A DNA stretch of 64,000 bases, taken from Candidatus Poribacteria bacterium (GTDB lineage Bacteria; Poribacteria; WGA-4E; WGA-3G). The notes beneath the pieces are model-generated. The model searched no databases, was not told where the DNA came from, and was given only the letters and a program-made list of their open reading frames with translations. Shown here piece after piece: positions 25,329 to 60,900 of the stretch (within the stretch, counting starts at the first letter, position 1; the number at the start of each line of letters is the position of its first letter). Location: contig VYCT01000339.1 of the NCBI GenBank assembly GCA_009843785.1, forward strand, positions 4,228-68,227, given 5' to 3'. The position numbers and the translations under genes were made by a program.

Positions 25329-25453
25329 GAGTTGTCAGTGGTCAGTTCGGTTTTTCTACGAAAAACCTTCAGTTTTCAGTGGTTACCAGTTACCAGATGT
25401 GTCCTTTCTGGCAACTGGACACTGGCAACTTCTTTACTGATAACTATTACATT

Positions 25454-26437: not shown

Positions 26438-26591
26438 GGATGGCTATTAGTTTTAATCAAGAACGCGATTTCCGATATTTAAAAATATGCGCGTGTTCTT
26501 GGTTAAAGAAACCAGCGGCTGTCGGTTAAAGAGATTTTGATTAATCAGACCCCCTCTTAACTGACAACTGAAAACTGATAACTATAATAAA

Positions 26592-30181: not shown

Positions 30182-30284
30182 GGTGAATCCCGTCAAGAGC
30201 AACATAACTTCACGCAAACCCCGTTTTGATAAGGTTCCCCACCCGTTACTGGGAAGCGGAGAAAAAACCGAGCGGAACCCCGAT

Positions 30285-33666: not shown

Positions 33667-34126
33667 AGTTAACTCCTTACTTTAGTAAATATAAGCTGCT
33701 ATAAGCTGCTATAAGCTGCATAAATTTTGTGTTTTTACGCTGTGAGTTTGCATCGTCTCTCTGTTGCATCGTTTCCGATTCCACTCGGTGGTGGTAGAGA
33801 CCTGCCTTGCGGCAGGGTGGAATTCTCTACCAACGATGCTGTTCATAGCATAGCACACGTTAAAATAAAATCAAGTTTTTTTTGATTTTACTATTGAAAC
33901 CGAACCGACGCAGCTAACGTTTATTGAAGTGTTGCAGGTTTGAAGTCCTGCAACATTGCAATCTATCAATCTTGAAATCCTGCAGAGAAGTAACCAGTGG
34001 CCAGTAACCAGTTAAAGAGTGCCTCGCAGTGAGAGTTGTGGCAATAACTAAAATGTTCCCGACACAAGGTCTTAACTGGTAACTCGTAACTGGAAACTGG
34101 TAACTCTAAAAAAGGAAATTTAAAAT

Positions 34127-34747
34127 ATGAAGACGTTAGCTGTTCTTTCCCGGAAAGGTGGCACCGGCAAGACGACCCTCGCGATCCATCTCGCCGTCGC
34201 CGCTGAACGCGCCGGACATACGACTATTCTTATCGATCTCGACCCACAAGCCTCCGCGGCGAAATGGAACGACCATCGCGAAGGCGATACACCTTTTGTC
34301 GTGACGGCGCCCCCATCACGCTTAACAGAAGTTTTGAACAAAGCCGCGGACGGCGGCGCAACCCTCGCAATCTTGGATACCGCACCGCACACCGAGATCG
34401 CCGCACTGGATGCCGCAAGCGTCGCAGAGATGGCGTTGATCCCATGCAAACCGGCACTCATCGACCTACAGGCGATTACCTCAACCATCAATGTGATCCG
34501 TCTCGCGAACGTGCCGGCACGGATCGTTTTCAACGCTGTCCCCGCCAGAGGTGACCGTGTCGATCAGGCGCGTGAAGCCGTCAAAGTCTTTGATGTGCCG
34601 TGCGCGCCGTGTGAAGTCGGGAATCGAATCGCTTTTAGCGATTCCTATAACGCCGGACTCACCGCACAGGAATACGAACCGCGCGGAAAAGCGAGTCGTG
34701 AAATCAGAGAACTTTATACTTACATATCAACCGAAATGGGGGTATAA
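34127..34747 (+). CDS. parA: ParA/Soj-family partition ATPase (small type Ib).
   Basis: Deviant Walker A motif KGGTGKTT, an IDLDPQ block, and a 206-aa length. Confidence 0.8.
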   Translation: MKTLAVLSRKGGTGKTTLAIHLAVAAERAGHTTILIDLDPQASAAKWNDHREGDTPFVVTAPPSRLTEVLNKAADGGATLAILDTAPHTEIAALDAASVAEMALIPCKPALIDLQAITSTINVIRLANVPARIVFNAVPARGDRVDQAREAVKVFDVPCAPCEVGNRIAFSDSYNAGLTAQEYEPRGKASREIRELYTYISTEMGV

Positions 34748-34868
34748 TAGGAGGAGTTACCAGTTACCAGTTACCAGTTACAAAAAGAGATGTGTGTTTG
34801 CTTGGGTGTTTCCCTGAGGTTCATCTGAAACCTCTTTAACTGGCCACTGGATACTGGATACTGATAAT

Positions 34869-35135
34869 ATGGCAAAGAAACCGAATCTCGCAGAAGCTTT
34901 TAAAGTCGATGAAAACGAGTTACAACCGAAACCTGAACTCCAAGTCGTTGAACCTCAGCCGAAGCCTACCGCGAAAGCGGCAGCGAAAAAGAAGCATATC
35001 GGCGGCTATTTTCCACCCGATGTCTACACACAGATGAAAATCCTCTGTGCTGAGACGGGTATGACGACCCAGGAGATATTGACGGAGGGCCTCAACGCCG
35101 TCTTTCGGATGCACGATAAACCACCGATAGCGTGA
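34869..35135 (+). CDS. ParG-like ribbon-helix-helix centromere-binding protein, partner of ParA.
   Basis: A basic, flexible, Lys- and Pro-rich N-terminus. The C-terminal RHH reads KHIGGYFPPDVYTQMKILCAETGMTTQEILTEGLNAVF. It sits directly downstream of parA. Confidence 0.55.
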   Translation: MAKKPNLAEAFKVDENELQPKPELQVVEPQPKPTAKAAAKKKHIGGYFPPDVYTQMKILCAETGMTTQEILTEGLNAVFRMHDKPPIA

Positions 35136-35159: not shown

Positions 35160-35300
35160 TCAAAAAATTTTTCAGTTTGCCTCGCAGTGAGAGTACTCGG
35201 TTAAGAGAGACGCTCTATATCAAGTTTCCCTCTTAACCGATAACCGATAACCGATAACTGACAACTATTCCTCCGACAACCGATAACCGATAACCATTAA
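35160..35300. repeat. Array of 7-bp direct repeats (CCGATAA x3, CTGACAA, CCGACAA, CCGATAA x2, CCATTAA) downstream of the par genes; candidate centromere or operator.
   Basis: Tandem heptamers are visible directly in the sequence. The preceding core 'GCCTCGCAGTGAGAG' also occurs at 34020. Confidence 0.5.
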
Positions 35301-35302: not shown

Positions 35303-35503
35303 ATGATTTCTGAAACTTATTGGACAATTTTAGAGCATGCGAACCGCGAGTTAGCGTTGCGTTTTGAGAAACTCAAGAAAGCGCGCGCCACCGGTGATCC
35401 GGAAGGCATCAAACAGGCGCGGATGGAGTATCTACGGGCGTTGCAGGTACTCTATACCGATGCGCAGAGTGCCGTCTCGCAGCCGATGCGTTTTAAGTCG
35501 TAA
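35303..35503 (+). CDS. Hypothetical small protein.
   Basis: ORF with an ATG directly after the repeat array. No domain recognised. Confidence 0.35.
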   Translation: MISETYWTILEHANRELALRFEKLKKARATGDPEGIKQARMEYLRALQVLYTDAQSAVSQPMRFKS

Positions 35504-35784
35504 CAGGCTGCTCCGACTCGTCGGCTGATAGTTCAAAAAAGGGTTGTCAATTTTTCGCAAAACTGATACACTCAATAAATCCAGTTTTGGGTGGCACTAC
35601 GAAGCGTACCGCTCGGTATGTCTGCCACCCTCCCACCTTTGTAGGGAAATATAACTGGAGACTGGAAAATCCTTAAACAATCTTTGTATAATTTACACTA
35701 TAGATTCCATCTACAATATGTTGGACTCTACACCACTGAATCTTGCTTGAAATAGAATCAGCACGAGAGCAAAAGGAGGTTCAC

Positions 35785-36081
35785 ATGACTGACAACACAC
35801 GCAACGAAATTGCGCGTCACAGTTTAGAAATACTCAAGTTGGCTGTACTGGAGGTATTATATCAACACACCGGACCGCATAAGGGTTGCATGAGCGCGGC
35901 TGACATTCGCGAAAAACTTAAAATACAGCGTCCAAAATACGCAGCGGGCAGCGTCAACGATCTGTTTCACGGCACGCTTTCATATTTGAAAGATGACAAG
36001 TATGCCGACCATATTTACAGGGACGCATGGCGGATCACAGAGCTGGGAATATCGGTTATTGAAAAGGAAAACGCGTTATGA
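35785..36081 (+). CDS. Hypothetical protein, possibly winged-helix.
   Basis: ORF with RBS AAGGAGG upstream of MTDNTRNE. Confidence 0.4.
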   Translation: MTDNTRNEIARHSLEILKLAVLEVLYQHTGPHKGCMSAADIREKLKIQRPKYAAGSVNDLFHGTLSYLKDDKYADHIYRDAWRITELGISVIEKENAL

Positions 36082-36114
36082 TGTAAACTGGATATCCTTA
36101 AAGTGATATAGGAG

Positions 36115-37413
36115 ATGTATGCGTTTATGGAAACTGTGATGAAAAAGGCATTTGACCGAGATACGGGCCGATACTACATGGTAGCAATGCCAGGCCCCGC
36201 AACCGTTAGACAGAATATCCTTGATCTTGAGTATCCTGAAGACGGAATCAGCGTTAAGGATGCGTCAATTATATTAGCCGAGAAGCTTAACCTTTCTGAC
36301 GAACAGAAAAATGCAAGGAATAGTTCCAACCTCAATGTGTTTCGTTACAGTGTGGTTGCCCCACAATTTAAATGGCTCTTAGAGGCGGGTGAACTCGAAC
36401 AACCCGGAGGCCCCAGAACCCTCTACTTTCCAGCTATAAGCAGCTCGGATTCATCAGATAGTACGCTTCGTGAAACCTCTCCTGATCCTGAACCTGAATG
36501 GGCATCTTCTCCAGAATCGGTGAAGAGAACAGCGGTGGACCCTGATACAAACGAAGAATACGAGGTACCCTTACCACCAACTTCTGTTGTCAAAGAAGCA
36601 CTTCTTGATTTTGACTATCCAGCGAGTGGAATTCAGATTAAGGATATTGCAGAGGCATTGGCTGACCAATTAGAACTCACCGATAAGCAGAGAGAGGCCA
36701 AGAATACATACGGTCTGGTTTGGCGATTTCATGTAAATATCACAGCAAATGACTTAGTAAACTCGGGGCAACTTTTGAAACTAAGGCGTGGATGGATTAT
36801 CAATCCTGAACAGCCGGACGTGGAGACTCCAGAAGATGCTGATGGTGACTCCGCATTTTCTGATGGAGATACGCCGTCTCCCGAAGCTGTCATTGATCGG
36901 AATTATCGAAAACACCGAGACGGATTGAAGGCAGAGCTTCGAGAAAAAATTATGGCCAGCGATCCAGGTTTTTTTGAGAAACTGGTTCTTTGCCTTCTCG
37001 TTGAGATGGGGTATGGTCGTTCGCGGGCAGATGCTGAAGTCTTAGGACGTAGTGGTGATGGGGGTATTGACGGTATTATTAAAGAAGATGAACTCGGACT
37101 TTCTCTGATTTATATTCAGGCAAAGCGGCAGGAGGGCAATGTATCAGTCTCTCAAGTCCGAGATTTTACTGGAGCATTAGATTGTAAAGGTGCCCAGAAA
37201 GGGATATTCATCACAACTTCAAATTTTACTCAGCCTACTAAAGATTTTGTAGAAGAAGTACGCTCTAGGAGGATTATCCTTATCGATGGCGATCAACTTG
37301 TGGAGCGGATGATTGACCATGACTTAGGTGTTTCCTTAGGGATCTTTTACCAGCTCAGAGAGGTGGATCCGGGTTACTTTTCTATAGATGATGAGGAAAT
37401 AAATGATGAATGA
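36115..37413 (+). CDS. Mrr-family type IV (modification-dependent) restriction endonuclease with two N-terminal Mrr_N winged-helix domains.
   Basis: The C-terminal Mrr_cat block reads GYGRSRADAEVLGRSGDGGIDGIIKEDELGLSLIYIQAKRQEGNVSVSQVRDFTGAL...GIFITTSNF (PD-(D/E)xK with D...QAK). There are two ~90-aa N-terminal repeats (DLEYPEDGISVKD... and DFDYPASGIQIKD...). Confidence 0.75.
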   Translation: MYAFMETVMKKAFDRDTGRYYMVAMPGPATVRQNILDLEYPEDGISVKDASIILAEKLNLSDEQKNARNSSNLNVFRYSVVAPQFKWLLEAGELEQPGGPRTLYFPAISSSDSSDSTLRETSPDPEPEWASSPESVKRTAVDPDTNEEYEVPLPPTSVVKEALLDFDYPASGIQIKDIAEALADQLELTDKQREAKNTYGLVWRFHVNITANDLVNSGQLLKLRRGWIINPEQPDVETPEDADGDSAFSDGDTPSPEAVIDRNYRKHRDGLKAELREKIMASDPGFFEKLVLCLLVEMGYGRSRADAEVLGRSGDGGIDGIIKEDELGLSLIYIQAKRQEGNVSVSQVRDFTGALDCKGAQKGIFITTSNFTQPTKDFVEEVRSRRIILIDGDQLVERMIDHDLGVSLGIFYQLREVDPGYFSIDDEEINDE

Positions 37414-37454
37414 AACAACAACCCTGTTTGTATGAATCATAGGCGTAATTTTTA

Positions 37455-38117
37455 ATGAAGATAATACCAGACAGATTTGTATACCCGACACGCGATTTTA
37501 ATGTAGTAGGTTTTGAAATCAGTCCGACTGAAGATAAGGAACGTATTGACCAGGCTTTTGTGGAAGCATCCGAACACGGAGGTGACCCTCGCGACACGTC
37601 CGGAAAAATGCGGACTAAAGATGAACGCTTGAGAAAACGCTATTTGGGTGCTTTAACTGAGAATTTACTTGTTGAATATTTGCAGTCTGAACTTGGGGAT
37701 GGTGTGTGTGTCGTAAAAAAACCATTTGAGACGTATGAAAAACATGTAGACATAGAAATACATTGGGATGAAAATATGACACCTCTTGAGGTCAGGTCGT
37801 CATTTTACTATGCAACTTACCTACGTAATGTTATCGGTACACATTTCAAAACCCTTGGTCCCTACAGTACAGCCCGTAAACCTGGTGAGACTGTGAAGGG
37901 CTTTTATTTGCAAGGGGTACTTAGGCAGCAGTTTAACATTGAAGATGACCATACACTTTACTTTACTGGCGGTGCTCCAGGTGATTGGTTTTTAGAAAAA
38001 GGAGTCGTAAGTACTCTTAAACAAGACAGTGCTGAGTATTTGGTTTTGCCTATGCTTGAAGGCATGGATGCTACGGAGATTGTGAATGCGATAAAGAGTA
38101 TCATCCATGGAGTTTAA
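37455..38117 (+). CDS. Hypothetical protein, a candidate restriction endonuclease partner of the adjacent methyltransferase.
   Basis: Its stop is 2 nt before the methyltransferase start (operon-like). It is AT-rich. A possible D..E block (HVDIEIHWDE) is present. No firm motif. Confidence 0.3.
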   Translation: MKIIPDRFVYPTRDFNVVGFEISPTEDKERIDQAFVEASEHGGDPRDTSGKMRTKDERLRKRYLGALTENLLVEYLQSELGDGVCVVKKPFETYEKHVDIEIHWDENMTPLEVRSSFYYATYLRNVIGTHFKTLGPYSTARKPGETVKGFYLQGVLRQQFNIEDDHTLYFTGGAPGDWFLEKGVVSTLKQDSAEYLVLPMLEGMDATEIVNAIKSIIHGV

Positions 38118-38119
38118 AA

Positions 38120-39604
38120 ATGAATGTTGAAAACAGAACTATTTTTGAAGGTGATAATCTACATATCCTGCGAGGGTTTGATTCTGAGACGATAGACCTT
38201 ATTTATTTGGATCCGCCCTTTAATTCCAATCGGACGTATGAAGCTCCGATCGGAAGCGAGGCTGCTGGTGCAGCGTTCAAAGACGCTTGGACATTAAGTG
38301 ATTTGGATAATGCTTGGCACGGCGAACTTGCTGAGCATGAACCTGCACTCTATTCTTCTATTAGTGCTGCTGAATTTAGCCATAGCAAGTCTATGAAAGC
38401 TTACCTTATCATGATGGGCATCCGAATGCTGGAACTGCGACGTGTGCTGAAACCAGATGGAGGCATCTATCTGCACTGTGATTCGACAGCAAGCCACTAT
38501 CTGAAAACGATGATGGATAGTATTTTCGGAAGAAATAACTTTAGATCTGAAATTACATGGAAGCGCACAACATCTACGCAAAAAGGATCTCAGCATCGTA
38601 GTATGCGGTGGGGCAATAACGCTGATGTACTCTTGTTTTATGCGATGTCTCGATCTACGTCATTGTGTCCTGAAAGGGAACTCACAGAATCTGAAATCTT
38701 GGAAAAATTCAAACATATTGACGAAAATGGTCAGCGATATTATGACGACTCAGCTCATATTTGGCGAACCCCAAATATGGGAGAGCGTCCAAACCTTTGT
38801 TATGAATGGCGTGGCTTTGTGAACCCACATATAGCTGGATGGAGGTTGAGCAGAGAGCGTTTGGAAGAAGAATATCAAAAAGGGAACATCGTTATTCGTC
38901 CTGATGGGAAATTGGAACGTCGGAAGTATCTTAAAGACTACAAAGGTGCTTCCTATGGTAATATCTGGGATGATATACTACCGCCCGGGCAAGGCGAACG
39001 CACTGGTTACCCAACTCAAAAGCCTCTCGAACTTTTAAAGCGTATTATCAGGGCGAGCAGTAAACCTAATGATATTGTTCTTGATCCATTCTGTGGGTGT
39101 GCAACAACTTGTATCGCAGCGGAAGCCGAGCAGAGACAATGGATCGGTATTGATCTAAGCCCCAAAGCTGTAGAACTTGTAAAATTTCGTCTGGAGCACG
39201 AATTGAAACTTACGGAAGATGGGGATATGCTCGGGGACAAGGTTATACACCGGACGGACATACCTACTCGCTTGGTGCCAGAAGAACCGCGTCAGATACA
39301 TGCTGATACCTTGTTCGGTATTCAAGACGTAGTGGGACAGGCTTTATCGCAAGTTGAACTCCGGCAGTATCGATCATATAAGCATACATTGTATGGACTT
39401 CAGGAAGGCAAATGCAATGGGTGTGAAGTGCTGTTCCCGTTTAGGAACCTGACAATTGACCATATCATTCCGCGCTCCAGAGGTGGCACTGATGACCCTG
39501 ATAATCTCCAGTTGTTGTGTGCCGCGTGCAACTCCACGAAAGGTGATCGGACGCAAGCGTATTTGATACAGGCGTTAAAAGAACAGGGCGTTCGTCGCGA
39601 GTGA
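38120..39604 (+). CDS. DNA methyltransferase (beta-class N6-adenine/N4-cytosine, DPPF motif) fused to a C-terminal HNH endonuclease domain.
   Basis: Motif IV LIYLDPPFNSNRTYEA sits near the N-terminus. Motif I LDPFCGCATTCIAAE sits near residue 315. The C-terminus reads CNGCEVLF...LTIDHIIPRSRGGTDDPDNLQLLCAACNSTKGDR, an HNH with C-x2-C ... C-x2-C. Confidence 0.75.
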   Translation: MNVENRTIFEGDNLHILRGFDSETIDLIYLDPPFNSNRTYEAPIGSEAAGAAFKDAWTLSDLDNAWHGELAEHEPALYSSISAAEFSHSKSMKAYLIMMGIRMLELRRVLKPDGGIYLHCDSTASHYLKTMMDSIFGRNNFRSEITWKRTTSTQKGSQHRSMRWGNNADVLLFYAMSRSTSLCPERELTESEILEKFKHIDENGQRYYDDSAHIWRTPNMGERPNLCYEWRGFVNPHIAGWRLSRERLEEEYQKGNIVIRPDGKLERRKYLKDYKGASYGNIWDDILPPGQGERTGYPTQKPLELLKRIIRASSKPNDIVLDPFCGCATTCIAAEAEQRQWIGIDLSPKAVELVKFRLEHELKLTEDGDMLGDKVIHRTDIPTRLVPEEPRQIHADTLFGIQDVVGQALSQVELRQYRSYKHTLYGLQEGKCNGCEVLFPFRNLTIDHIIPRSRGGTDDPDNLQLLCAACNSTKGDRTQAYLIQALKEQGVRRE

Positions 39605-39779
39605 AGATGAAGTGCCAACGTTTATTCAGACCGAATATTAGCAAAGTTAAGACAAGTGTTGTTGGTCGCATTCAACGGGTCTCAAAGCACCTAACGCCGA
39701 GCAGTGTGTCAGAATCTTGGTTTAGAGGGTGGTCTGAATTTCCGATGGCAGTACAAACAAATTCTGGAGGATTTAGTTT

Positions 39780-40763
39780 ATGGAAATTACGTTAAAGGCA
39801 TTGCCAGACCAAGAGACTGTCCCATACGTGCAGGCTATTACCAATAATCAGCAATGCAACTCTTGTAACCAAACTCTTACGTTTGACGAAAGCTACAGAA
39901 TAATTGATAACAGCGTTTTATTCTATAGGGAACCTTATTTCACCTGCGGATGTAAGCAATTTATTTGGGTCTCGTTTCTTCAATCCGATTCAGAGTATAT
40001 CAGTGACCCCAGAGAACTCTCTAATCTAATCAATCCTGAAACACACTCAAAAGCGAAGGTTGTAAAAGTTTCACGTGCGGATATTAGATTTCTTAAAGAA
40101 GACCTAAAAAGCAATAATATCCAACCAATAGACAATTACAATTCACTATACAAATCAGTAATCACCCTTTCTATGCAGATTCAACTCACCTTTATATTGA
40201 AGCCTGAAGCATTTTTTCATGTAGATTTTTGGGAAACAGAAAGGACCGGACTGTCAGATTTCATAAATAATATTATTCGTAATTCAGGCAATTTATTTTG
40301 GTTGGAAGTTAAACGCCTTCTACTGATAGAGAGTACCAGATTAATCGGGAACTTAGTTGACAAGAGAACTTCAGATACTTTCAATCTTAATGTGCTAAAA
40401 AAGAAATACCCTAATATTTCCTCACTTAAAAAGCTATCAGACGAATTCGATTGCAAAAAAGGAAAATATTATAAAATTCGCCGGTTTAGGAATAAATGGT
40501 TATCCCATACAGAAGCAAAATATAAGACAGCCAGCGAAGATGAACCTAATCAAAAATTATTGGCGGAATGCTTAGAGGATATAATAGTATCCGTTAACGA
40601 TATAAGCCAAGCCATGGGGCTTACATTCACAATAGAACATATTCAACTCGATACACGCACAGAGCAACGCGATTCCCTGTTATCAGTGTTAGGAAAAATC
40701 AATTATGCCTTGGACACCGAAAGAAGAGAGGGCGAGAACAATGCCGGTACTAACAATCAATGA
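39780..40763 (+). CDS. Hypothetical AT-rich protein with N-terminal Cys motifs and a possible C-terminal HEPN-like R-x5-H motif; a candidate Abi-type defense gene.
   Basis: CNSCNQ and CGCKQ zinc-ribbon-like pairs are present. 'RFRNKWLSH' fits Rx4-6H. It has the lowest GC in the window and sits between the restriction-modification genes and the integrase. Confidence 0.35.
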   Translation: MEITLKALPDQETVPYVQAITNNQQCNSCNQTLTFDESYRIIDNSVLFYREPYFTCGCKQFIWVSFLQSDSEYISDPRELSNLINPETHSKAKVVKVSRADIRFLKEDLKSNNIQPIDNYNSLYKSVITLSMQIQLTFILKPEAFFHVDFWETERTGLSDFINNIIRNSGNLFWLEVKRLLLIESTRLIGNLVDKRTSDTFNLNVLKKKYPNISSLKKLSDEFDCKKGKYYKIRRFRNKWLSHTEAKYKTASEDEPNQKLLAECLEDIIVSVNDISQAMGLTFTIEHIQLDTRTEQRDSLLSVLGKINYALDTERREGENNAGTNNQ

Positions 40764-40875
40764 CATAGAAGTTGGCATGAAATTTAGGTGCCTATCGCCA
40801 GTTCACGTCCGTCCTTATCCGCGTTGACGAGAGTTGTTGTGGTTTTCAACCTCTTACAGAGAAGGATGATGCTAT

Positions 40876-41619: not shown

Positions 41620-42265
41620 ACCGTCCAATCAACCCCATAGAAGACCCACCCACAATCCCTGCAGTGCGCGCCGATATTAAGGTGCTTGTCTCTCGTCCGA
41701 CGGTTGCTTTGACTTGACCGCTACGGCAGGCGAAATACGGCATGGCGAAGACATGCAGAGATGAAAAATACGAAAGTCGCTACGCTCCATTTTTCACCAC
41801 TGCCGCCAGCCAATACCGCGCTGCCTCCGCTACAGTTTCTGCTCGTGCAACGTCCCAGTAAACGCCGAAGTGCGCATTTTTTAAAGATAAGGCACGCCCT
41901 GCACCTTTCGCAATTTTCGCAGCCTGTCGCAGCATTTCGCAGCTTGCGTCGGTAAGGACAGATATTATTCAACCTCCAACAGAAAACAAAAACAAAGAGT
42001 TGTAATCCGAGCGGTTTTCTGGGTTTTCTGTCCGCAAGCAAGCGAAAGGATAGGGAAGAGTTCAAATAACGCTTGCTTGCTGCGTTTAGATAAATTGAAG
42101 TTGCTAATTTGGGCAGGATAGAAAGCACAGGGCTTTCACCGCGGTGCGCGTTTGGGTATCAGATCAGCGCAAGCCTAAGCGGAATTTAGGCATAAACCGG
42201 TCGTTTGGGCAAAAAAAATGCGCATTCTTGCCGAAAAAAACGCAAATTTTTTAGCAATTTTATTT

Positions 42266-42294
42266 GACTTTTATTGGTTTATGTGGTATAATAT
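42266..42294 (+). promoter_or_regulatory. Strong sigma-70-like promoter (TTGACT, 17-nt spacer, TATAAT) driving the early-gene block that starts at 42414.
   Basis: 'ttgacttttattggtttatgtggtataat' is followed by ~110 nt of leader and then the RBS GAGGT with ATG at 42414. Confidence 0.5.
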
Positions 42295-43084: not shown

Positions 43085-43390
43085 ATGATGAAGCATACAC
43101 CGAATCCTCGGCACCGGTACCATCGGAAGTGCCAGTGCGCTCCGTGCCGGAAAGTCCGGTATGTCCTGATGGGTCTTGAACCCCGCGAGCGGATGTCCGT
43201 AAACGAACTGCGAATCCTTCTGAACGCGTGCCACGATTACGGCACCGTTCATGAAGGCGATTTCCCAACCCTTGAAGCACTTGTCCAAGCACAGGCGGAG
43301 TGCCGGCTGCGCGCAACGGATATGCACAGCTCCGGTGAAATCCTGATTATCGGTCGGGATGCCTGCTACGTCACCTTCAAGGTTGACTAA
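43085..43390 (+). CDS. Hypothetical protein with a Cys/His cluster.
   Basis: The ORF starts at the upstream stop. HRKCQCAPCRK may bind zinc. Confidence 0.4.
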   Translation: MMKHTPNPRHRYHRKCQCAPCRKVRYVLMGLEPRERMSVNELRILLNACHDYGTVHEGDFPTLEALVQAQAECRLRATDMHSSGEILIIGRDACYVTFKVD

Positions 43391-43497
43391 ATAGTCACCA
43401 GTTACCAGTGGCTGTAGGGGCGAGGTAACCTCGCCCTTACAAGAAGTTTCTTTTCTGGTAACTGGTAACTGGAAACTGGAAACTATAAAAAGGAGAT

Positions 43498-43812: not shown

Positions 43813-43919
43813 AAACCGAGTAGCAGTCACCAGTTACCAGTCACCAGTGGCCAGTTAAAAGAGGTTTCCTCGCTGGCAACTGGTAACTGGCAACCACTAT
43901 AAAAAGGAGATACACATAT

Positions 43920-44445: not shown

Positions 44446-44862
44446 ATGGAGGCAGGGGCGGATAATGCTGCCCCTGATATTTTGATGCCCAAGAATTTTA
44501 ACTACTACAAGATGGGCGCGGTTGCCTATCTTTTCATAAACGAACCGGATAAAACCGTGAAGGAGATCGCCGATGCGGTTGGTATCCGCGAGAATACTGT
44601 CCACCAATGGCAAGCGAAAGGCGAATGGGACAAGGCGCTCGATGCGTTCAACTTCACCGGCGATAGAAGCCTCCGCAGGAAAGCCGCTCGCGATCTTGAA
44701 CGTGAGAGTAGCGACGTGATCGCCTTGGCGGAATCGATGTACCGTGAGGCGCGTGATACGGGGATGAACAAGGGACAGGCATCCAAGCATACCGCTAAAA
44801 TCGTCAATGTTTCTGAAAAAACCATCTTTAACTGGCGCAAGCGGTTTGCATGGGATGAGTAG
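44446..44862 (+). CDS. HTH-domain protein (two helix-turn-helix-like segments); a putative transcriptional regulator.
   Basis: VKEIADAVGIRENTVHQWQAKG and VSEKTIFNWRKRF resemble HTH_23/28-type motifs. Confidence 0.4.
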   Translation: MEAGADNAAPDILMPKNFNYYKMGAVAYLFINEPDKTVKEIADAVGIRENTVHQWQAKGEWDKALDAFNFTGDRSLRRKAARDLERESSDVIALAESMYREARDTGMNKGQASKHTAKIVNVSEKTIFNWRKRFAWDE

Positions 44863-45038: not shown

Positions 45039-45236
45039 ATGAAAGAAGATCGACACATCTACATGTTCACGCCTGCCGGTTGGCAACATCTTGAGACCGG
45101 CAAAGTTGTCGAGTCTGGCGGCATTCCGCTCGACGCAGAAGATGTTCAACGGCTCAAAGAATTGTATCTCGAAGAAGAAGTTAACAGTGACCAGTCACCA
45201 GTTACCAGAGAAGAAAAGCGTTCGTCAGGTGAATAA
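45039..45236 (+). CDS. Hypothetical small acidic protein.
   Basis: ORF preceded by a conserved ~75-bp promoter-like element that is repeated at 63715. Confidence 0.4.
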   Translation: MKEDRHIYMFTPAGWQHLETGKVVESGGIPLDAEDVQRLKELYLEEEVNSDQSPVTREEKRSSGE

Positions 45237-45317
45237 GTTTCCAGTTTCCAGTTTCCAGAAAGAAATGTTTGGAGAATCACAAACCCTCTTAACTGGTTAC
45301 TGGTGACTCATATAAGT

Positions 45318-45581
45318 CTATCGCGATCGGAACTTCCGCCCCCGCTTGCGTCTCGGTTTAGCGGTGATGGGGTTCTGTTCTTGTGCTGCACGGAAAGCGA
45401 CTTTTTTCTCGAAAGCTTCGCGATCTCGCCGCTCACGCGCAAGTTTCCGCCGCCGCTGGAATTGCGGACTCGCATAGTATTCTTCCTGCGTTATCTTACG
45501 AGGTGCAGGGTCAACTTTTTTTTCTTCGACCGTTAGCAGCAGTTCTTCTGGGCTTATGATTCTATTTCCGTGTTTATCCAT
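45318..45581 (-). CDS. Hypothetical basic protein.
   Basis: ORF, Lys/Arg-rich. Confidence 0.3.
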   Translation of the reverse strand: MDKHGNRIISPEELLLTVEEKKVDPAPRKITQEEYYASPQFQRRRKLARERRDREAFEKKVAFRAAQEQNPITAKPRRKRGRKFRSR

Positions 45582-46015
45582 CTGTTACCTGCCATTTTCT
45601 ATAGGACTTTATATCACTCTGTATCCACGTCACAATATGCCGGACGGCTCTATACACCCTAACAAAAAAACCTTTTCTTTTCGGATTCCGCCACGGCGCA
45701 GGCTGTAGTGATAAATGCCAACCTGCTTGTAGAAGTTTGTATGGCTGAATGAGCCCGTAACACAATAGGAAAGCGAGTAAGTTCGTTTCACGGGTAAAGA
45801 AATAATAGCGATTTCTAACTGTGAATGCAATAGAGCTGAAAAAAGGGTTTTCGTTTGACATGATATTCCTTTGAAAATGTGTGGCACCGGATATGCAGTC
45901 CACACACGACAGCAGCCATAGTGAGGTTCGCGGCATATCCCGCTCGCCTCTGCGAAAGTCATCCGATCACTATCATCGTGATGGGATGCTTTCGCTGGCT
46001 TTTTTAAATGACTCC

Positions 46016-46837
46016 CTAAAATGACAGTTTGACTGCGGCAAGGGTTGCCAATTCGGTTTCAATCGCATCGTTGAACGTCTGCAGCCCGAAATTCGCGCCG
46101 ATTTCAAGGTTGATATTATCGCGCAGCTCGAAACTCGTAGATGGCGTGATAATCAACTGGTGCACCGGGTTGTCACCCGCGCCTGCTAATTCCGGCATCA
46201 AGCGGACACCCAGACTCACATCGTAGGGCAGATGGACTTCCGTTGACAGTAGCAGATTGACACTGTTCCCGGCTTTGAAAGACAATCCACTCGGCGGCGG
46301 ATGCAAGGTTTCAAGATCGCGTCCGTCAAGTGCGTTCGGATCGTAGCCGAGATTTTCAAGATCGTCCCGCGCATTCGGGGGTCCGAAAGGACCGGCGTTA
46401 CGACCGAACACGCCGATGGAAATAGGGAATTTGGCGTTTCCGTGTTCAAGCTGCACCTCAATTGCCAAGCCGACATCTGCTTGCCGACCGAGATCACGGA
46501 CCGTCGGTCCCTTGAAAACACCGTCTGTGAAGACTTTAAACTGGAAAACGTTCCGGTTGGGAGACCCAACCCCTACGGGAAAATTGATTTCGGCGTGATA
46601 CTTACCGCGGACAACATTGCCGCCGCCTTGTGCGATCGCGGAGACATGCCCATTCTTAAACGGCACTGCACCGAGCGCGCCCCACCCGCGGTTACCGGCA
46701 ATCTCGTTAAATGTGATAGCAACGCTCGTGTCGTCAACTTCTGACGGCAGCTGCGCATGCGCGAGCGCACCGTAAAACATCACAAGCCCGACAATCATTG
46801 CTGCCCAAAGCCAAAGTCTCGTCTTCTGGAAAAACAT
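46016..46837 (-). CDS. Putative outer-membrane beta-barrel protein (moron).
   Basis: Signal peptide (LWLWAAMIVGLVMFYGALAHA), alternating amphipathic strands, and a C-terminal ...AAVKLSF with a terminal Phe. Confidence 0.45.
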   Translation of the reverse strand: MFFQKTRLWLWAAMIVGLVMFYGALAHAQLPSEVDDTSVAITFNEIAGNRGWGALGAVPFKNGHVSAIAQGGGNVVRGKYHAEINFPVGVGSPNRNVFQFKVFTDGVFKGPTVRDLGRQADVGLAIEVQLEHGNAKFPISIGVFGRNAGPFGPPNARDDLENLGYDPNALDGRDLETLHPPPSGLSFKAGNSVNLLLSTEVHLPYDVSLGVRLMPELAGAGDNPVHQLIITPSTSFELRDNINLEIGANFGLQTFNDAIETELATLAAVKLSF

Positions 46838-46979
46838 GAGTTTTAACTCCTTTTTTTAAAGTTGCCAGTTACGAGTTACCAGTTTCCAGTTAAGACCTTG
46901 TGGCGGTTACCTTTCCTGTTACTGCTACAAGAAACCTCTTTTACTGGTTACTGGACACTGGTTACTGGAAACTATTCTA

Positions 46980-47483
46980 CTATACATTTTCTGACGCGTG
47001 GTACCGGTGTACCACGACCACTCTAAACCTAATTATCTCAAATTTGGAGATAGTGCCTTCGCTACCTCGCCAACTCACAATACGTGTTCTTTCTGGGTTG
47101 ACACCTTCGACACCCAGCGTCGGGTTGCTATTAATAATCTGTCCGATCGAATAGTGGATGTCGGATGCCTGTTCTGTCAGGTCTTTCGCATCTGGACCTG
47201 TTTCCTCCTTCATCACGGCAGTGACCGCGATGGGAAAAACTTCGTCGATATAACCGATAACGTCTGAATCCGGTGCAGAACCGCCATCGCCATAAGTGAG
47301 CAGCAGTGCCGGCAGTGCTTCTTGCTGGTCTAACGCCGTCCAATGCACAAACCGTTTCTGAACTGTCTTGACATGTATCGGAAACCCTGAATCCTCTTTC
47401 GTGAGTTGCTTAAACAATCCTTCGAGGGCGTTGATAATCTTTGCTCGGCGGTGTGTGCCGATTACTTGTGCTTGTTCCATCAA
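46980..47483 (-). CDS. Hypothetical protein.
   Basis: ORF in the minus-strand late block. Confidence 0.4.
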   Translation of the reverse strand: MMEQAQVIGTHRRAKIINALEGLFKQLTKEDSGFPIHVKTVQKRFVHWTALDQQEALPALLLTYGDGGSAPDSDVIGYIDEVFPIAVTAVMKEETGPDAKDLTEQASDIHYSIGQIINSNPTLGVEGVNPERTRIVSWRGSEGTISKFEIIRFRVVVVHRYHASENV

Positions 47484-47721: not shown

Positions 47722-47824
47722 TCTGGACTCCTTGGCGTAATAGTTGTTGGTGGTTGGTTAAGAGGATTCTGATTTAATCCAAAACCTCTTAACTTATAAC
47801 TTATAACCAATAACTATTAACCAC

Positions 47825-48481
47825 TCATTTTCGTTCATTGATCGTAACTTTGACGAGGTCATTGTCAACATATTTCAGGCTCTCAAGTAACCCTTTGGTT
47901 CTTGGGTCTACGTTGCCCGAAATAACCACTTCAACAGTCGCCACAGGCTCCACCGTTTCCGGTTCGGGTTCGGGTTCCGGTTCTGGAAACGTGGCATCAT
48001 CGACTTCGGTCGCCACCTTTTCTACAACTTCTTCGGAGACCTGTTCAAAGATCGCTTCAGCGGGAGCCTCATGCCCATTGATGACCGTTTCAACCGCTTC
48101 TTCTGTGATTTCGGTAGGCGTTTCTAATTTCTGAGTCGCGTCTACCGCTGCCTGTAAGGGTGAGTCGGCAGCGTCCGCAGCAGCCTTGAATACCCGCTCG
48201 GTTGGAGTGAGTTCACCTTCGTCTACTTCTCGCGAATGTGCGTCATCTGCGGTTAATTGTTCATGCTCACCGAGGCGCGCTGCAATCTGTTCGAGACGTT
48301 TTTCAAGTCCGCCGATCTGCTTCATTGCGCCGTCAACACCTTCTTCAAGTTGCTCAAATTTCGGTTCGATCTGGCTAATATTCACTTTCAAAACCTCCGT
48401 TTCAGTAAAGAAGTTAGCAGTTTTTCCAGTTACCAGTTTCCAGTTACCAGAAAAGAGAAAGAAACACCCAAGCAAAAACAC
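47825..48481 (-). CDS. Hypothetical acidic coiled-coil protein with a PEPEPEPE repeat.
   Basis: The N-terminal coiled coil (IEPKFEQLEEGVDG...LEKRLEQIAARL) is paralogous to the N-terminus of 48513..49235. Confidence 0.45.
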   Translation of the reverse strand: MFLLGCFFLFSGNWKLVTGKTANFFTETEVLKVNISQIEPKFEQLEEGVDGAMKQIGGLEKRLEQIAARLGEHEQLTADDAHSREVDEGELTPTERVFKAAADAADSPLQAAVDATQKLETPTEITEEAVETVINGHEAPAEAIFEQVSEEVVEKVATEVDDATFPEPEPEPEPETVEPVATVEVVISGNVDPRTKGLLESLKYVDNDLVKVTINERK

Positions 48482-48512
48482 TCTTAACTGGGTACTGTCA
48501 CACTGGTTACTG

Positions 48513-51641: not shown

Positions 51642-51733
51642 TTATAGTGTCCAGTAATCAGTGTTCGTAGGGGTTGGGTTTCCCAACCCGTGCGGACGAG
51701 GCAACCTCGCCCCTACGGTAACTGGTAACTTCC

Positions 51734-52553: not shown

Positions 52554-52669
52554 CCGTTGTTCCTTTTAAGAGTTGTCCAGTGTGCTAAAGTCTGTCCAGT
52601 GAGCTAAAGTTGAAAGAGGGATCCTCATAACTTCACAACTTTGAAACTCTCGGACACTATCAAACTTTC

Positions 52670-54061: not shown

Positions 54062-54315
54062 TTTTTCTCCTTAGGAGCAGTTTCCAGTGTCCAGTGTCCA
54101 GTTTCCAGTTATAAGACAAAGCCATCTTTTACTGGTTACAGATAACTATTTACCGGTTACTTCTGTCAAAGCATCTATAGCGTTGAATATGCATTCATGC
54201 TACAATATGCTAATTCTTCAATTTGAAGTTTTCAGTGTCCAGTGTCCAGTGTCCAGTTAAAGAGATATTAGATTCACCAAATTCCTCTTAACTGGTTACT
54301 GGTTACTGGTTACTC

Positions 54316-54852
54316 TTATGCACCCAGCGCAACAAGCGTATGTGTCGTGTCGGAATTGATGACACTGCCTTTACCTTTCACTGCAGCAACCAAGTCACTC
54401 ACTGTTGCAGAGACGGAATTGATCTGCGTCCGTGCGGCGTTATGCGCAGTGCGTCTCTTCGTGTCACTATCTACGTCCCCATCTGCTGCGATAGCGGTGA
54501 TATCCGAAGGTAACGCTGCTGGTGCAGAGACAGCTTTAACGTGCCCTTTCGCTCTGTTAGCACCGAGCGCACCGACAAGCTTATTGCCGCGTGCGACAGT
54601 CTGATTCTCGCCTAACGGGAGATTTAATCCGCCGAACATATAGGCACCGGTGAATTTGTGGTCGTCGTCAACACTGATCACTTTGCCATCAATCTCGTCG
54701 CCATCCCCAACGAGTTCACCTTTCCCATCGGCGTTGATCTTGAACGCTTTACCGACGGCATCAGACCGGTTCGGTTTCGTTGCGTCGTACTGGATCGTGT
54801 CGCCATCCCCTTGGAAGGTGGTGGTGACTAAAAACGGGTGTTCCTTTAGCAT
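54316..54852 (-). CDS. Putative head decoration or minor capsid protein.
   Basis: A 178-aa Gly/Ala/Asp-rich protein between the protease/scaffold and the putative major capsid protein, as with lambda gpD. Confidence 0.3.
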   Translation of the reverse strand: MLKEHPFLVTTTFQGDGDTIQYDATKPNRSDAVGKAFKINADGKGELVGDGDEIDGKVISVDDDHKFTGAYMFGGLNLPLGENQTVARGNKLVGALGANRAKGHVKAVSAPAALPSDITAIAADGDVDSDTKRRTAHNAARTQINSVSATVSDLVAAVKGKGSVINSDTTHTLVALGA

Positions 54853-54952
54853 TGTCTAATCTCCTTGTTTTGTCGTGTGATTGGAAGATTGGAAGTCCTG
54901 GGTTGGAAGATTGGGCACCCATCCTTCCCCCCTTCCATCCATCCACTCCCCG

Positions 54953-59993: not shown

Positions 59994-60644
59994 TCAAACC
60001 GTTATCTCCTTTTCCTCTTCCTCGGAGAGCTCCTCAAGCGTTGGGAAATTATCAATCAGTTGCTTCGTTTCGAGATCGAAACTTCCAATAACGCTGACTT
60101 GCTCCTCAACCGGTGCATCCTTAAGTGCCGCTTTCTGTTTTGCTTCAGTCTTGGCTTTCGCATCCTCTTGCGCTTGACGGCTGTTTGTATCGTAACCGTG
60201 ATGCTCCAGATTCCAGCGTTTCATTAACTTATCGGCGATCATGGTGAGCCACTTGAAGTTCTCGATAAAGAGAAGCTGCTTTTCAAAATCTATCTTGTTG
60301 GAAGCTATGTTTTGGAGTACCCAGACCTGAAAGATCGCTAACACTTCGTCATAGGTATTTATCAGGGTGTTGATGGTTTTCTCGTTGTCCTCCGCTGAGC
60401 GTGCGTCACTGGAAAACTTTTTGCGTCTTTCATGGAACTGTGTTTGTGTGTCTGTGGGGGCATCTGCTAATAGATAAACGCCCCGCTTCGGCCTCTCAAG
60501 GGTGTGATCTTTTGTCAAAATACCGAGTCGTTTTTTTATGTTACCTTCTGTGTGTTGCGGGAGCGCGTCGAAAATTTCGCTCGTACGCATTTTACCTTTT
60601 TCTCTAAGCAACACTACGATATTTTTATCAACTGGACTTGCCAT
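59994..60644 (-). CDS. Winged-helix DNA-binding protein immediately upstream of TerL: a candidate terminase small subunit, or alternatively an iteron-binding Rep/repressor.
   Basis: N-terminal winged-helix (VVLLREKGKMRTSEIFDALPQ...KKRLGILTKDHTLERPKRGVYLL). Acidic C-terminus. Five 22-bp direct repeats lie 13-120 bp upstream of its start. Confidence 0.45.
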   Translation of the reverse strand: MASPVDKNIVVLLREKGKMRTSEIFDALPQHTEGNIKKRLGILTKDHTLERPKRGVYLLADAPTDTQTQFHERRKKFSSDARSAEDNEKTINTLINTYDEVLAIFQVWVLQNIASNKIDFEKQLLFIENFKWLTMIADKLMKRWNLEHHGYDTNSRQAQEDAKAKTEAKQKAALKDAPVEEQVSVIGSFDLETKQLIDNFPTLEELSEEEEKEITV

Positions 60645-60656
60645 TTTTTGTTCCTT

Positions 60657-60779
60657 CGGAGACGGTTTAGATACTTTTTAGAGACGGTTTAGATACCCTT
60701 CGGAGACGGTTTAGATACCCTTCGGAGACGGTTTAGATACTTTTTAGAGACGGTTTAGATACTTTTCAGATATTATCTG
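60657..60779. repeat. Five tandem 22-23-bp direct repeats (C/A)GGAGACGGTTTAGATAC(TTTTT/CCTT), followed by the palindrome CAGATA-T-TATCTG.
   Basis: Seen directly in the sequence. Candidate TerS recognition (pac/cosB-like) repeats, or iterons/operators. Confidence 0.8.
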
Positions 60780-60819
60780 GGCATCGTCAAATGACGAAGC
60801 GAATCTTGCTACTCATAAT

Positions 60820-60900
60820 TATAATGTGGAGCGCGTGGTGTCTATAAGGGGAATTCGGTAGGAAAGCAATACATAAGCAATACATAAACAATACATTTGA
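60820..60900. repeat. Left copy of an ~80-bp imperfect inverted-repeat pair. It contains three CAATACATAA(G/A) tandem units.
   Basis: 'ATAATTATAATGTGGAGCGCGTGGTGTCTATAAGGGGAATTCGGTAGGAAAGCAATACATAAGCAATACATAAACAATAC' is about 90% identical to the reverse complement of 62530-62612. Confidence 0.8.

Follow-up and report, generated by a model that had tools for sequence, protein, structure and literature searches.

Fast-changing, mirror-image heptamer arrays fill most gene gaps of a phage-like element in Candidatus Poribacteria

Why should the gaps between the genes of a mobile element be filled with the same short repeat, arranged as its own mirror image? The stretch of DNA that raises this question, which we refer to as the window, is 64,000 nucleotides of contig VYCT01000339.1 (assembly GCA_009843785.1) and consists of ~33.6 kb of host chromosome (positions 1-33666) joined to a prophage-like element that spans 33.7-64 kb and reaches the window end. 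The non-coding share of the element is 14.4%, and we find that most of its gene gaps are filled by fast-changing, mirror-image arrays of the heptamer NNACTGG. The host is Candidatus Poribacteria and the carrier is a temperate phage or phage-plasmid; relatives of its large terminase subunit (TerL; 75-99% identity) are found on IMG/VR contigs and in six metagenome-assembled genomes, all from Candidatus Poribacteria. We compared the element with a graded series of such phage relatives (L003-L007 and L131-L136) and added ~59 kb of host DNA from ispB-anchored metagenome loci (L137-L139), whose IspB is 83-89% identical.

The heptamers are abundant, regularly spaced and concentrated in the element. 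TAACTGG occurs 33 times where 5.1 occurrences are expected, and none of 100 shuffles reached 33. The cores ACTGG or CCAGT, spaced exactly 7 nt, form 47 tandem pairs against 0.09 expected from first-order Markov resamples (maximum 1). All but one of these pairs lie in the element, the last being in the host part, and 41 of the 46 element pairs are non-coding, in line with the original prediction for this locus of a dispersed, element-enriched family at gene boundaries. Tandem Repeats Finder reports ~25 period-7 arrays in the element against 2 in the 33.6 kb of host DNA; array density is ~0.2-0.3 per 10 kb in host DNA and 3-8 in phage loci, more than 10-fold above the level in ~93 kb of Poribacteria host DNA with comparable intergenic space. 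Inspection together with Tandem Repeats Finder confirmed the described repeats in every interval that had been listed. An alternative pattern, in which arrays are spread uniformly through the host, away from gene boundaries and unpaired, is not what we observe.

The copies share a common layout. On the forward strand the CCAGT arm invariably precedes the ACTGG arm, and a copy reads (CCAGTNN)2-5, a centre, (NNACTGG)2-5, an A-rich tract, a Shine-Dalgarno (SD) sequence (GGAG) and a start codon. The reverse arm starts 7-18 nt past the upstream stop codon, 11-40 nt separate the last core of the forward arm from the next start codon, and the gap between the two arms is 25-60 bp or an entire gene. 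Across 106 units, positions 3-5 (ACT) are 93-100% invariant, the GG is 76-82% conserved and the NN is free, and the outermost unit of each arm is degenerate, which leaves the arm ends fuzzy. In three copies (61070-61088, 54062-54078 and 46838-46855) this outermost degenerate unit ends in CTCC, or the sequence after it contains ACTC, and the predicted fold pairs the CTCC or ACTC with the SD GGAG of the next gene in a 4-bp mini-hairpin.

The copy at 43394-43484 exemplifies the family. It has two CCAGT units, a GTAG-tagged GC hairpin (GGGGCGAGG-TAA-CCTCGCCC) and three to four ACTGG units, and is followed by TATAAAAAGGAGA and a start codon, either ATG 43498 (in the list of open reading frames (ORFs)) or ATG 43504 (in the deposited gene call); its sense strand folds with a minimum free energy (MFE) of -48.3 (z -8.8). 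The copy at 43824-43894 has four CCAGT units, a AAAAGAGGTTTCCTC centre and two ACTGG units, again followed by TATAAAAAGGAGA, with ATG 43920 next. The string TATAAAAAGGAGA had been taken as a general trailer of the arms, and it is exact in just these two places (43484 and 43898); other arms lead into a comparable A-rich tract and GGAG. The proposed central palindromes likewise hold in part. An AAGAG(G)..(C)CTCTT mini-hairpin forms the centre of ~7 copies, two copies (43414 and 51667) have GC hairpins tagged GTAG...CTAC, and the remaining centres are other palindromes or unrelated sequences or, in relatives, an entire small gene. The centre modules GCCTCGCAGTGAGAG, TTTGCTTGGGTGTTTC and CACAAGGTCTTAACTGG recur across copies in differing combinations.

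The same architecture is also built from other units. Variants of the type CTAAAGT/ACTTTAG, or more generally AAGT/ACTT(TAG), are found at 52574-52660, 61697-61789 and 62409-62500, and ATAACTT units at 47738-47823 (read as TAACTTA at 47790), both unit types having been foreseen by the original prediction, which also named the smaller copies ahead of ispB and sirC, confirmed here in host DNA. Further variants include TAACCGA (x8.7 at 35234) and two arrays beyond those listed before, namely a period-8 palindrome of GGAAGG/CTTCCAA units at 54875-54950 and an in-frame array within the portal gene at 56940-56970.

Comparison with relatives shows how quickly these copies come and go. Blastn blocks between relatives end at copies, and in a table of orthologous spacers a junction of 0-12 nt in one genome can correspond to one of 100-350 nt that includes a copy in a second genome. 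The dominant unit differs genome by genome, and orthologous arrays differ in unit number, which fits slippage. The major capsid protein (MCP) itself occurs unaltered on seven public contigs. The DNA upstream of its gene holds two ACTGG composites in the window, none in L003, L005, L006, L007 and L131, GGTT/AACC arms in L133, GTCAGCG/GCTGAC arms in L134 and GGAAG/CTTCC arms in L135. The nearer of the two window copies (54078-54140), absent from the same five relatives, lies directly upstream of the MCP ribosome-binding site (RBS; start 54061, minus strand) and has four ACTGG units in gene orientation, then AAGGAGAAAAAATG. In L003, whose TerL is 99% identical and whose genes are 93-98% identical in nucleotide sequence, 12 kb hold no ACTGG array. 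Instead, palindromes of the ACTTTAG type occupy several spacers where the window has an ACTGG-type copy or nothing, and one of them stands in place of the window's 69-aa gene.

Copies also enclose genes and enter them. The portal|protease junction is 4 nt long in the window and in L005, and in L006, L007 and L131 the same junction holds [CCAGTNN x3-4], an RBS, an 86-aa ORF, [NNACTGG x3-4] and a second RBS. The ORF (L006 locus 13980-14325) is a 50% paralogue of the window gene 45574-45861 (minus strand, 95 aa), whose product matches no Pfam family. The junction between genes g52056 and g51734 is hyperplastic in this respect, and one to four additional small ORFs alternate with copies there. In a second example, the portal ORF (56055-58340, minus strand) has a hypervariable, array-derived, in-frame linker at about residue 458 (56929-56977), between the portal domain and a C-terminal domain matching phrog_24776, and the linker differs in every relative. 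The window array here, (ACTGGNN)x4.4 at 56940-56970 on the forward strand, runs opposite to the gene and contributes the in-frame residues ..ASYQLPVTS..; in L005 an entire composite is translated in frame, and in L003 the translated insert is a GC-hairpin module of the GTAG...CTAC type found in the window at 51651-51725.

The two host copies are equally labile. The one upstream of sirC is missing from the same spacer in four related loci (L138-L141), and the spacer before ispB, downstream of an aminotransferase gene, holds GTCAGCN x4 in L137 and perfect GATAAGC/GCTTATC inverted arms in L141. Judging from these alignments, the copies appear to be dispensable, very fast-evolving and placed at the insertion, deletion and replacement joints of the phage lineage.

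The original prediction interpreted the copies as combined promoter, terminator or operator modules. Three strong sigma-70-like promoter matches (11/12) occur in the 42-62 kb region, at 42264, 42401(-) and 60922, all of them outside copies, and no match of 10-12/12 to the consensus, which was assumed to be sigma-70-like for Poribacteria, lies inside any copy, and on these grounds we reject a promoter role. A TATAAA before GGAG was rejected as a -10 box as it is too near the SD. The copy at 60961-61074, a composite of 4 + 4 units, is located between a -10 box (60945-60950) and the RBS and TTG start (61094) of a ribbon-helix-helix (RHH) gene, RHH2, and is therefore 5' untranslated region (UTR) sequence. 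Since the copies lie inside operons or 5' UTRs, downstream of recognisable promoters, we infer that they are transcribed. As a general reading, intrinsic termination was also set aside, although stable hairpins are predicted: the arms are trailed by A-runs rather than T-runs, T-tracts are lacking, and terminator-like sites show no enrichment (29 versus 21.8 +/- 4.7). A candidate late-promoter motif upstream of MCP (ATTGTAGCA) was rejected because it is not enriched in the window (17 versus 12.3). Rfam gave a single match at E <= 1, of 60965-61070 to a miRNA-precursor model, which at 28 bits against a gathering score of 128 is due to chance.

What the copies have in common, whatever their sequence, is self-complementarity. 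Each of the 19 spacers that we folded is predicted to form a long hairpin with interruptions; z ranges from 0.0 to -8.8 and is at or below -2 for 18 of them, which bears out the hairpin potential claimed for the inverted arms; the sole spacer that folds no better than its shuffles is 52574-52660 (z 0.0). The partner arm is the reverse complement of the unit whether that unit is ACTGG, ACTTTAG, AACTTAT, AACC, GCTGAC, GGAAG or, at a host locus, GATAAGC. That this holds for every unit is the main argument that pairing, or at least a palindromic origin, matters. We tentatively favour the following reading, although we would not call it established: the copies may be transcribed, slippage-driven and recombination-prone structured spacer modules that belong to the class of short tandemly repeated repetitive (STRR) and TAACTGA sequences and play a role at insertion/deletion junctions like that of the promoter early stem-loop (PeSL) cassettes of T4-type phages.

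The proposed mechanism has two parts. In DNA, each arm would grow or shrink independently in 7-nt steps by slipped-strand mispairing, and the homology between dispersed arms would let arms, centres and small genes swap, insert and delete between genomes; by analogy with PeSL, this is how the copies could have become the indel and mosaic joints of the lineage. In a polycistronic mRNA, the arms would zip into a hairpin of 5-bp helices with 2x2 mismatches between them, which would tuck away a long untranslated spacer or an inserted gene and leave the A-rich/SD region free for the next cistron, so that spacer insertions might be tolerated in tightly packed phage operons. The NN mismatches would hold the DNA palindrome imperfect. 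The cassette insertion, a nested copy (62367-62538), the reshuffled centre modules and the in-frame copies in the portal linker are all consistent with this proposal.

Cyanobacterial STRRs offer a first comparison. The units STRR1, STRR2 and STRR3, which Mazel et al. are said to have described in 1990, reportedly read CCCCAGT, TTGGTCA and CAACAGT, and STRR1, (CCCCAGT)n, is equivalent to (CCAGTCC)n and hence to the CCAGTNN unit of the window family. Like the window family, STRRs are tandem, intergenic and strain-variable. Unlike them (they are direct arrays in the chromosomes of heterocystous cyanobacteria), the window copies have paired inverted arms, a centre, proximity to an RBS and a phage carrier.

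The kinship with STRR heptamers that had been suspected is thus upheld, and the closest published match is to the TAACTGA repeats (MacGregor 2015, PMC4679880), intergenic direct heptamers of marine Beggiatoaceae, some Cyanobacteria and Bacteroidetes, with function unknown. As here, these are tandem heptamers with an AACTG core, in sets of 2-6 units, that are overwhelmingly intergenic and in forward orientation upstream of start codons, with in-ORF copies reversed, and between related strains the sets show 7-nt indels or are present in one and absent from the other (PMC4679880). The unit of the host sirC copy is identical to the published repeat. The window family therefore shares with the STRR/TAACTGA class its tandem ACTG-type 7-nt units and its intergenic forward orientation, and departs from it in not being limited to direct arrays: in 'Maribeggiatoa', 169 of 170 sets are direct and one is inverted (PMC4679880, which does not mention phages), whereas the window copies are nearly all convergent inverted pairs around a centre. 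In addition, TAACTGG is dominant in the window and never repeated in the 'Maribeggiatoa' genome (PMC4679880), and the window copies usually come with a canonical SD and are carried by a phage. A literature search on STRRs, Poribacteria phage repeats and follow-ups of TAACTGA found nothing further, and PMC4679880 is the only description we found of such units beside starts.

The PeSL cassettes consist of a strong sigma-70-like promoter and an effective terminator, and their recombination and mini-circles have been shown experimentally (PMC2839356, PMC4122927). Similar to the window copies, they are short composite intergenic motifs with a stem-loop, present many times per phage genome, flanking small non-essential ORFs and coinciding with insertion, deletion and replacement breakpoints between close relatives (PMC2839356, PMC4122927). 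The window matches PeSL in the coincidence of copies with breakpoints and variable ORFs (the blastn blocks, the spacer table, the 86-aa ORF and the g52056|g51734 junction). It differs in that its copies are built of heptamers, no promoter or T-tract was found in them, and recombination here is deduced from sequence.

The architecture is not limited to this lineage. We scanned IMG/VR for the exact pattern CCAGTNNCCAGT-N15-45-ACTGGNNACTGG, with one same-composition scrambled core as a control, and found 27 convergent stretches against 4 divergent (mirror) stretches and 3 with the scrambled core; the convergent ACTGG architecture is thus ~7-9 times commoner in viral contigs than either. Seventeen contigs with convergent arrays fall outside the Poribacteria phage lineage and have 50-71% GC; one 38% GC contig has merely two perfect palindromes of 2+2 units, which may be chance. 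Comparison of seven outside contigs with the window element (tblastx and phmmer, on the available DNA) detected no shared protein, and the matches were translated arrays only. Near-identity searches of the 42-62 kb region against plasmid and phage collections gave no match, nor did a distant search of one copy against phages. The outside contigs keep the order of reverse arm, short centre, forward arm and then RBS or start codon. The unrelated contigs lack the AAGAGG/CCTCTT centre, and we therefore set aside its resemblance to BoxA (CUCUUUAAC) and to the T7 epsilon-enhancer (UUAACUUUA). In the unrelated viral contig L105 (69% GC), positions 12334-12620, between two divergent starts, hold CCAGTTG x15 opposite a CAACTGG/CAACTGA arm. 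An ATG in L105 with a too-close GGAGG would translate the array as (SCQLPVA)n and probably does not mark a real ORF.

Several observations weigh against structured spacers as the whole explanation. In three tests we detect no selection for pairing beyond the shared 5-nt core. First, of 60 NN positions in register, 13 are Watson-Crick complementary, compared with 23.0 +/- 3.4 under permutation (P(<= observed) = 0.0004), which means that NN complementarity is, if anything, avoided. Second, the number of units in one arm does not correlate with that in the other (rho = -0.23, n = 44); symmetric arm growth, hinted at by the 4/4 and 3/3 arms of L006 and L007, is therefore not general. Third, the sense strand of the 19 spacers folds no better than the antisense strand by MFE, so there is no G:U signature. 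Beyond these tests, ACT is nearly invariant while NN varies freely, and complete composites persist within the portal coding region, where a role in RBS delivery is impossible. The recurrence of core, period and convergence in unrelated contigs points to sequence-specific reading rather than to structure alone, and the recombination invoked above is deduced from mosaic patterns. Given that the pairing tests failed, that the core is invariant, that the arrangement is biased and that the pattern recurs in unrelated phages of high GC, a sequence-specific reader stays in play.

A broad version of that idea is that heptads with an ACTG(G/A) core form a cis-acting code, shared across phyla, that has a conserved reader, the convergent form being a two-sided site used by phages at cistron boundaries. 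Candidate readers are the ribosome/S1 or cold-shock proteins on RNA and, on DNA, a strand-polar enzyme such as primase or a RecBCD-like nuclease. We regard this code as doubtful, though worth stating.

A more specific alternative is that the arms are double-stranded DNA site arrays for a heptad-reading protein like omega or the stoperator-binding repressors, and that mirror arrays silence or roadblock prophage transcription, with unit types as immunity specificities. The omega protein of pSM19035/inc18, an RHH protein that acts with delta (ParA), binds at least two contiguous heptads, direct or inverted, that overlap promoters. As with omega, the window has 7-bp units with a conserved core in both orientations, and a ParA gene (34127-34747) and a small RHH gene (RHH1, 34869-35135; PF20605, E = 8e-17) adjoin two copies; the exact 7-bp period, the invariant 5-bp core with free NN, the unselected NN pairing, the independent arm lengths, the strong preference for the convergent arrangement and the dominant unit type of each genome all suit such a protein. 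The element encodes two RHH proteins and a protein with two helix-turn-helix (HTH) motifs. Unlike omega heptads, however, the window arms lie 25-60 bp or a gene apart, downstream of promoters or between cistrons, rather than as contiguous heptads overlapping a promoter. Stoperators of cluster A mycobacteriophages sit in intergenic spacers across prophage operons, and as asymmetric 13-14 bp sites with one orientation relative to transcription and with positions largely conserved among phages sharing a repressor they were rejected as a match for window copies that are palindromic and whose positions are unconserved in close relatives.

The relatives also show that RHH proteins and arrays are not inherited together. 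L145 and L146 have ParA proteins 98% and 95% identical to that of the window, and in L145 the RHH1 gene beside ParA aligns at ~83% nucleotide identity. Both contigs nevertheless lack the copy upstream of ParA (33989-34105) and the copy between ParA and RHH1 (34755-34863), the two genes abutting there, and carry a CCAGT/ACTGG composite downstream of RHH1, in the spacer where the window has the 35203-35295 array. L005 and L006, with RHH2 99% and 97% identical, have a 35-nt RHH2 5' UTR without a copy; L131 has a palindrome of ATAAGTT/AACTTAT units there instead; and L004, whose RHH2 is only 38% identical, has retained ACTGG units. Because relatives with 95-99% identical ParA or RHH2 lack the arrays at the same spacers, the arrays do not appear to be ParG- or omega-style operators of RHH1 or RHH2, and we reject that role, which the original prediction had raised.

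Better operator candidates exist for both proteins. An 82-nt inverted repeat (91% identity; 60817-60898 and 62540-62621) contains a TAGACA-N18-TATAAT-like promoter and three copies of the 11-mer AAGCAATACAT, which adjoins divergent promoters and becomes CAATAGATA in relatives with a diverged RHH2. Because its sequence shifts in step with RHH2 divergence, the 11-mer is likely the RHH2 operator. The two copies of the 82-nt repeat bracket the RHH2 operon, one directed at the late (terS) operon and the other at the genes from 62780 on. Upstream of ParA, short CCTGCAA/TTGCAA(C) repeats at 33925-33985, shared with L146, are a better candidate than the heptamers for the par operator or centromere. 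Given further that site positions are almost never conserved in close relatives, that four or five unit types occur within one genome, and that arrays also occur in spacers of the host and in phages that are unrelated and have no protein in common with the element as far as the available DNA shows, we consider a dedicated heptad-binding protein unlikely.

Alternatively, the forward arm could be an array on RNA, or on single-stranded DNA, that is read by conserved machinery (ribosome/S1, cold-shock or CsrA-like proteins) and tunes translation initiation, with the reverse arm masking or mirroring the signal. The forward arm always points toward the next start, 11-40 nt off, and in three predicted folds the outermost degenerate unit (..ACTCC) pairs with the SD. 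Reading by conserved cellular machinery has been proposed for TAACTGA repeats (PMC4679880), and two arrays, at 35234-35295 and before sirC, extend to the ATG with no intervening SD, which is also seen in 'Maribeggiatoa' (PMC4679880). The core is maintained over contigs of 50-71% GC and across phyla (PMC4679880), and convergent ACTGG is ~9x commoner than the scrambled control in IMG/VR. This sort of signal is hard to reconcile with close relatives that have no array at the same essential genes (MCP, protease and RHH2), with other unit types that replace it freely at the same spacer, with complete composites inside the portal ORF, or with solitary ACTGG arrays in unrelated viral contigs, which, when tested crudely against ORFs, have no preferred direction relative to a downstream start (58 versus 52); nor is any factor known to bind the forward arm. 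A translational signal is therefore improbable in our view.

Similarly improbable, we think, is that the copies are a functionless by-product of heptanucleotide slippage and palindrome-generating replication errors in scarce non-coding DNA, where only self-folding imperfect palindromes would survive in operons. Dispensability in close relatives, extreme turnover, degenerate edges and independent arm lengths would all follow, and heptamers are the most abundant long simple-sequence repeats in many genomes, according to the summary of Mrazek 2007 given in PMC4679880. Slippage by itself does not account for an ACT core that stays invariant while NN varies, for the arrangement bias (27 to 4) and core-specific enrichment (27 to 3) in IMG/VR, or for a more than 10-fold higher density in phage DNA than in ~93 kb of host DNA with comparable intergenic space.

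The weakest alternative is that the copies are non-autonomous elements resembling miniature inverted-repeat transposable elements, the arrays being multi-site terminal inverted repeats, the 86-aa cassette a cargo-bearing form and the empty copies cargo-less ones. Presence/absence polymorphism at orthologous spacers, an arm-flanked gene where relatives have a 4-nt junction, the nested copy, the dominance of a single family in each genome and the occurrence in unrelated phages and host DNA recall such elements, as do the in-frame insertions in a protein linker, since Rickettsia palindromic elements also insert in frame in proteins. We consider it improbable, because no target-site duplication is visible on comparing filled and empty sites and whole spacers including the RBS are replaced; the outer units are degenerate, which leaves no sharp termini; copies vary in unit number, NN and centre; a spread over hosts of 50-71% GC would demand a very widespread enzyme; and no transposase or RAYT was found among ~45 element proteins in a Pfam or PHROGs scan, which was not exhaustive and took in neither the host genome nor the element beyond the window.

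Other repeat families resemble the copies in part. Repetitive extragenic palindromes (REPs) and their mosaic elements (BIMEs), BOX, Correia and Rickettsia palindromic elements are, as here, small imperfect palindromes in operon spacers, transcribed and strain-variable; unlike the window copies, they have conserved units and sharp ends and no tandem-heptamer arms. The REP/RAYT system comprises palindromes of 20-40 bp tagged GTAG or CGTC together with a RAYT gene. GTAG-tagged REPs are known (PMC3733652), and two window centres, at 43414 and 51667, are hairpins that begin GTAG and end CTAC; no RAYT gene was seen in the window, and the heptamer arms lie outside the REP definition. Integron attC sites, imperfect palindromes with RYYYAAC on one side (left) and GTTRRRY on the other that follow each cassette and act with an IntI integrase, were rejected since their polarity is opposite (the window has ..GTTA on the left and TAAC.. 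on the right); the only tyrosine recombinase (247 aa) has a plain Phage_integrase domain, and the flanked genes include core virion genes. Lastly, Borg tandem repeats (PMC9879509) are likewise pervasive and fast-evolving in a mobile element, nearly absent from the host, and both intergenic and in frame; unlike the window arms, they are direct and perfect, with many unit lengths and an archaeal host (PMC9879509).

The remaining copies illustrate the modularity of the family. Upstream of ParA (ATG 34127), the composite at 33989-34105 has a CCAGT arm at 33994-34012, a centre with GCCTCGCAGTGAGAG and CACAAGGTCTTA, and an ACTGG arm at 34073-34105. Its CACAAGGTCTTAACTGG module is common with the composite at 46860-46973, between the minus-strand genes 46980-47480 and 46016-46837. 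The composite between ParA and RHH1 (ATG 34869) at 34755-34863 comprises (AGTTACC)x3.9, a AAAAAGAG..CCTCTTT centre and ACTGG x3, and shares TTTGCTTGGGTGTTTC with the copy at 48423-48510, which has CCAGT x3, an AAGAG..CTCTT centre and a degenerate ACTGG arm. On the forward strand at 35203-35295, an AAGAG..CTCTT core is followed by (TAACCGA)x8.7 at 35234-35295, which reaches ATG 35303. The composite at 45185-45306, between the convergent genes 45039-45236(+) and 45318-45581(-), has two CCAGT arms and one ACTGG arm and overlaps the 3' end of the plus-strand ORF. The variant copy at 47738-47823 has a GT-rich arm, a GGTTAAGAGG..CCTCTTAAC core and a (TAACTTA)x3.7 arm, and the REP-like copy at 51651-51725 has a double GC hairpin between a single CCAGT and a single ACTGG.

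Around the MCP gene, the mixed copy that follows it (52574-52660) is built of 19-nt units (CCAGTG+CTAAAGT) x1.9, a AAAGAGGGATCCTC centre and an ACTT-type arm. Just past the stop of gene 54316-54852(-), the composite at 54233-54314 has 3 + 3 units around TTAAAGAG..CCTCTTAA (z -6.3). The palindrome at 54875-54950, of period ~8 with GGATGG/GGAAGG units, reads CCATCCTT on the plus strand; the same spacer holds an ACTTTAG-type palindrome in L003, an ACTGG-type one in L131 and a GCTGA-type one in L134 and L135. Toward the window end, an AAGT/ACTT(TAG)-unit palindrome with a AAAAAGAGGTTTCT centre (61697-61789) lies upstream of gene 61816-62364. The nested copy at 62367-62538 consists of an outer CCAGT arm (62367-62403) and ACTGG arm (62513-62538) around an inner AAGT/ACTT-type palindrome (62409-62500), with a sense MFE of -60.3. 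The copy at 62647-62769, upstream of gene 62780-63082, has (AGTAACC)x4.9, an AAGAGG..CCTCTT core, AACTGAC/AACTGAA units and a second small palindrome. In the host part, both on the forward strand, the copy upstream of ispB (25330-25455) contains GTCAGTG/TTCAGTT units, CCAGT x2 and ACTGG x2 (z -4.9), and that upstream of sirC (26515-26583) has an AAAGAG..CTCTT core and the units TAACTGA CAACTGA AAACTGA TAACTAT, which end a few nt before the ATG.

The genes around these copies are those of a host chromosome and a phage. The host part encodes an aminotransferase, IspB, SirC, a CcsA-like protein, HemA and a trypsin-like protease with a type IX secretion system (T9SS) sorting tail. In addition to ParA and RHH1, the element encodes an Mrr endonuclease, a methyltransferase (MTase)-HNH fusion and the tyrosine recombinase; a strong promoter (42264-42292) opens a plus-strand block of small genes, and a long minus-strand virion operon contains a terS-like gene, TerL, portal, protease and MCP. 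RHH2 occupies 61094-61390. A tRNA scan found no tRNA. The island 35503-40875 (Mrr endonuclease, a 220-aa protein of unknown function, an N6/N4 MTase-HNH fusion and a 327-aa unknown) is not present in the L005 phage, where a single gene separates RHH1 from the integrase (L240 alignment). The gene at 44446-44862 encodes a 138-aa protein with two HTH motifs (matches to HTH_23, HTH_Tnp_1 and Terminase_5), a candidate early-operon DNA-binding protein.

We also note three repeats of other kinds. A 10-bp tandem repeat (TATAAGCTGC, x3.5) at 33690-33723 lies exactly between the last host gene (the protease, ending at 33666) and the element, and may be near an attachment site or genome end because the L005 contig begins 263 nt ahead of its ParA. 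A 22-bp tandem repeat (TTCAGAGACGGTTTAGATACTT, x5.3) at 60655-60770 immediately precedes the RBS of the terS-like gene 59994-60644(-) and could be a pac site or TerS-binding array; L004, L006 and L132 have other tandem repeats in its place, and their TerS-like proteins are just 42-72% identical. Lastly, a dispersed host repeat of ~80 nt (..AACTTCAC..AAACCCGTTTT..CCCCACCCGTTACTGGGAAG..) in two host intergenic regions, 23925-24010 and 30185-30275, is unrelated to the heptamer copies, and L137-L139 gave no match to it.

Cyanobacteria have been known for decades to carry STRR/TAACTGA-type heptamers, and giant sulfur bacteria joined them more recently, but neither function nor mechanism has been assigned to the repeats. 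Here we find this type of unit in a further phylum, Poribacteria, concentrated in a phage and in an inverted, modular, convergent two-arm form, and close relatives show copies being gained and lost, changing unit type, enclosing genes and entering a protein linker. Our tests also separate a constraint on the core sequence from a constraint on pairing, of which none was detected. If the copies are merely slippage debris, they caution against calling heptad arrays beside RHH genes operators. If the cross-phylum code were true, it would provide a mechanism for these long-unexplained repeats and a tractable, phage-borne model in which to study it. For the phages of these sponge symbionts, the copies are a likely driver of mosaicism.

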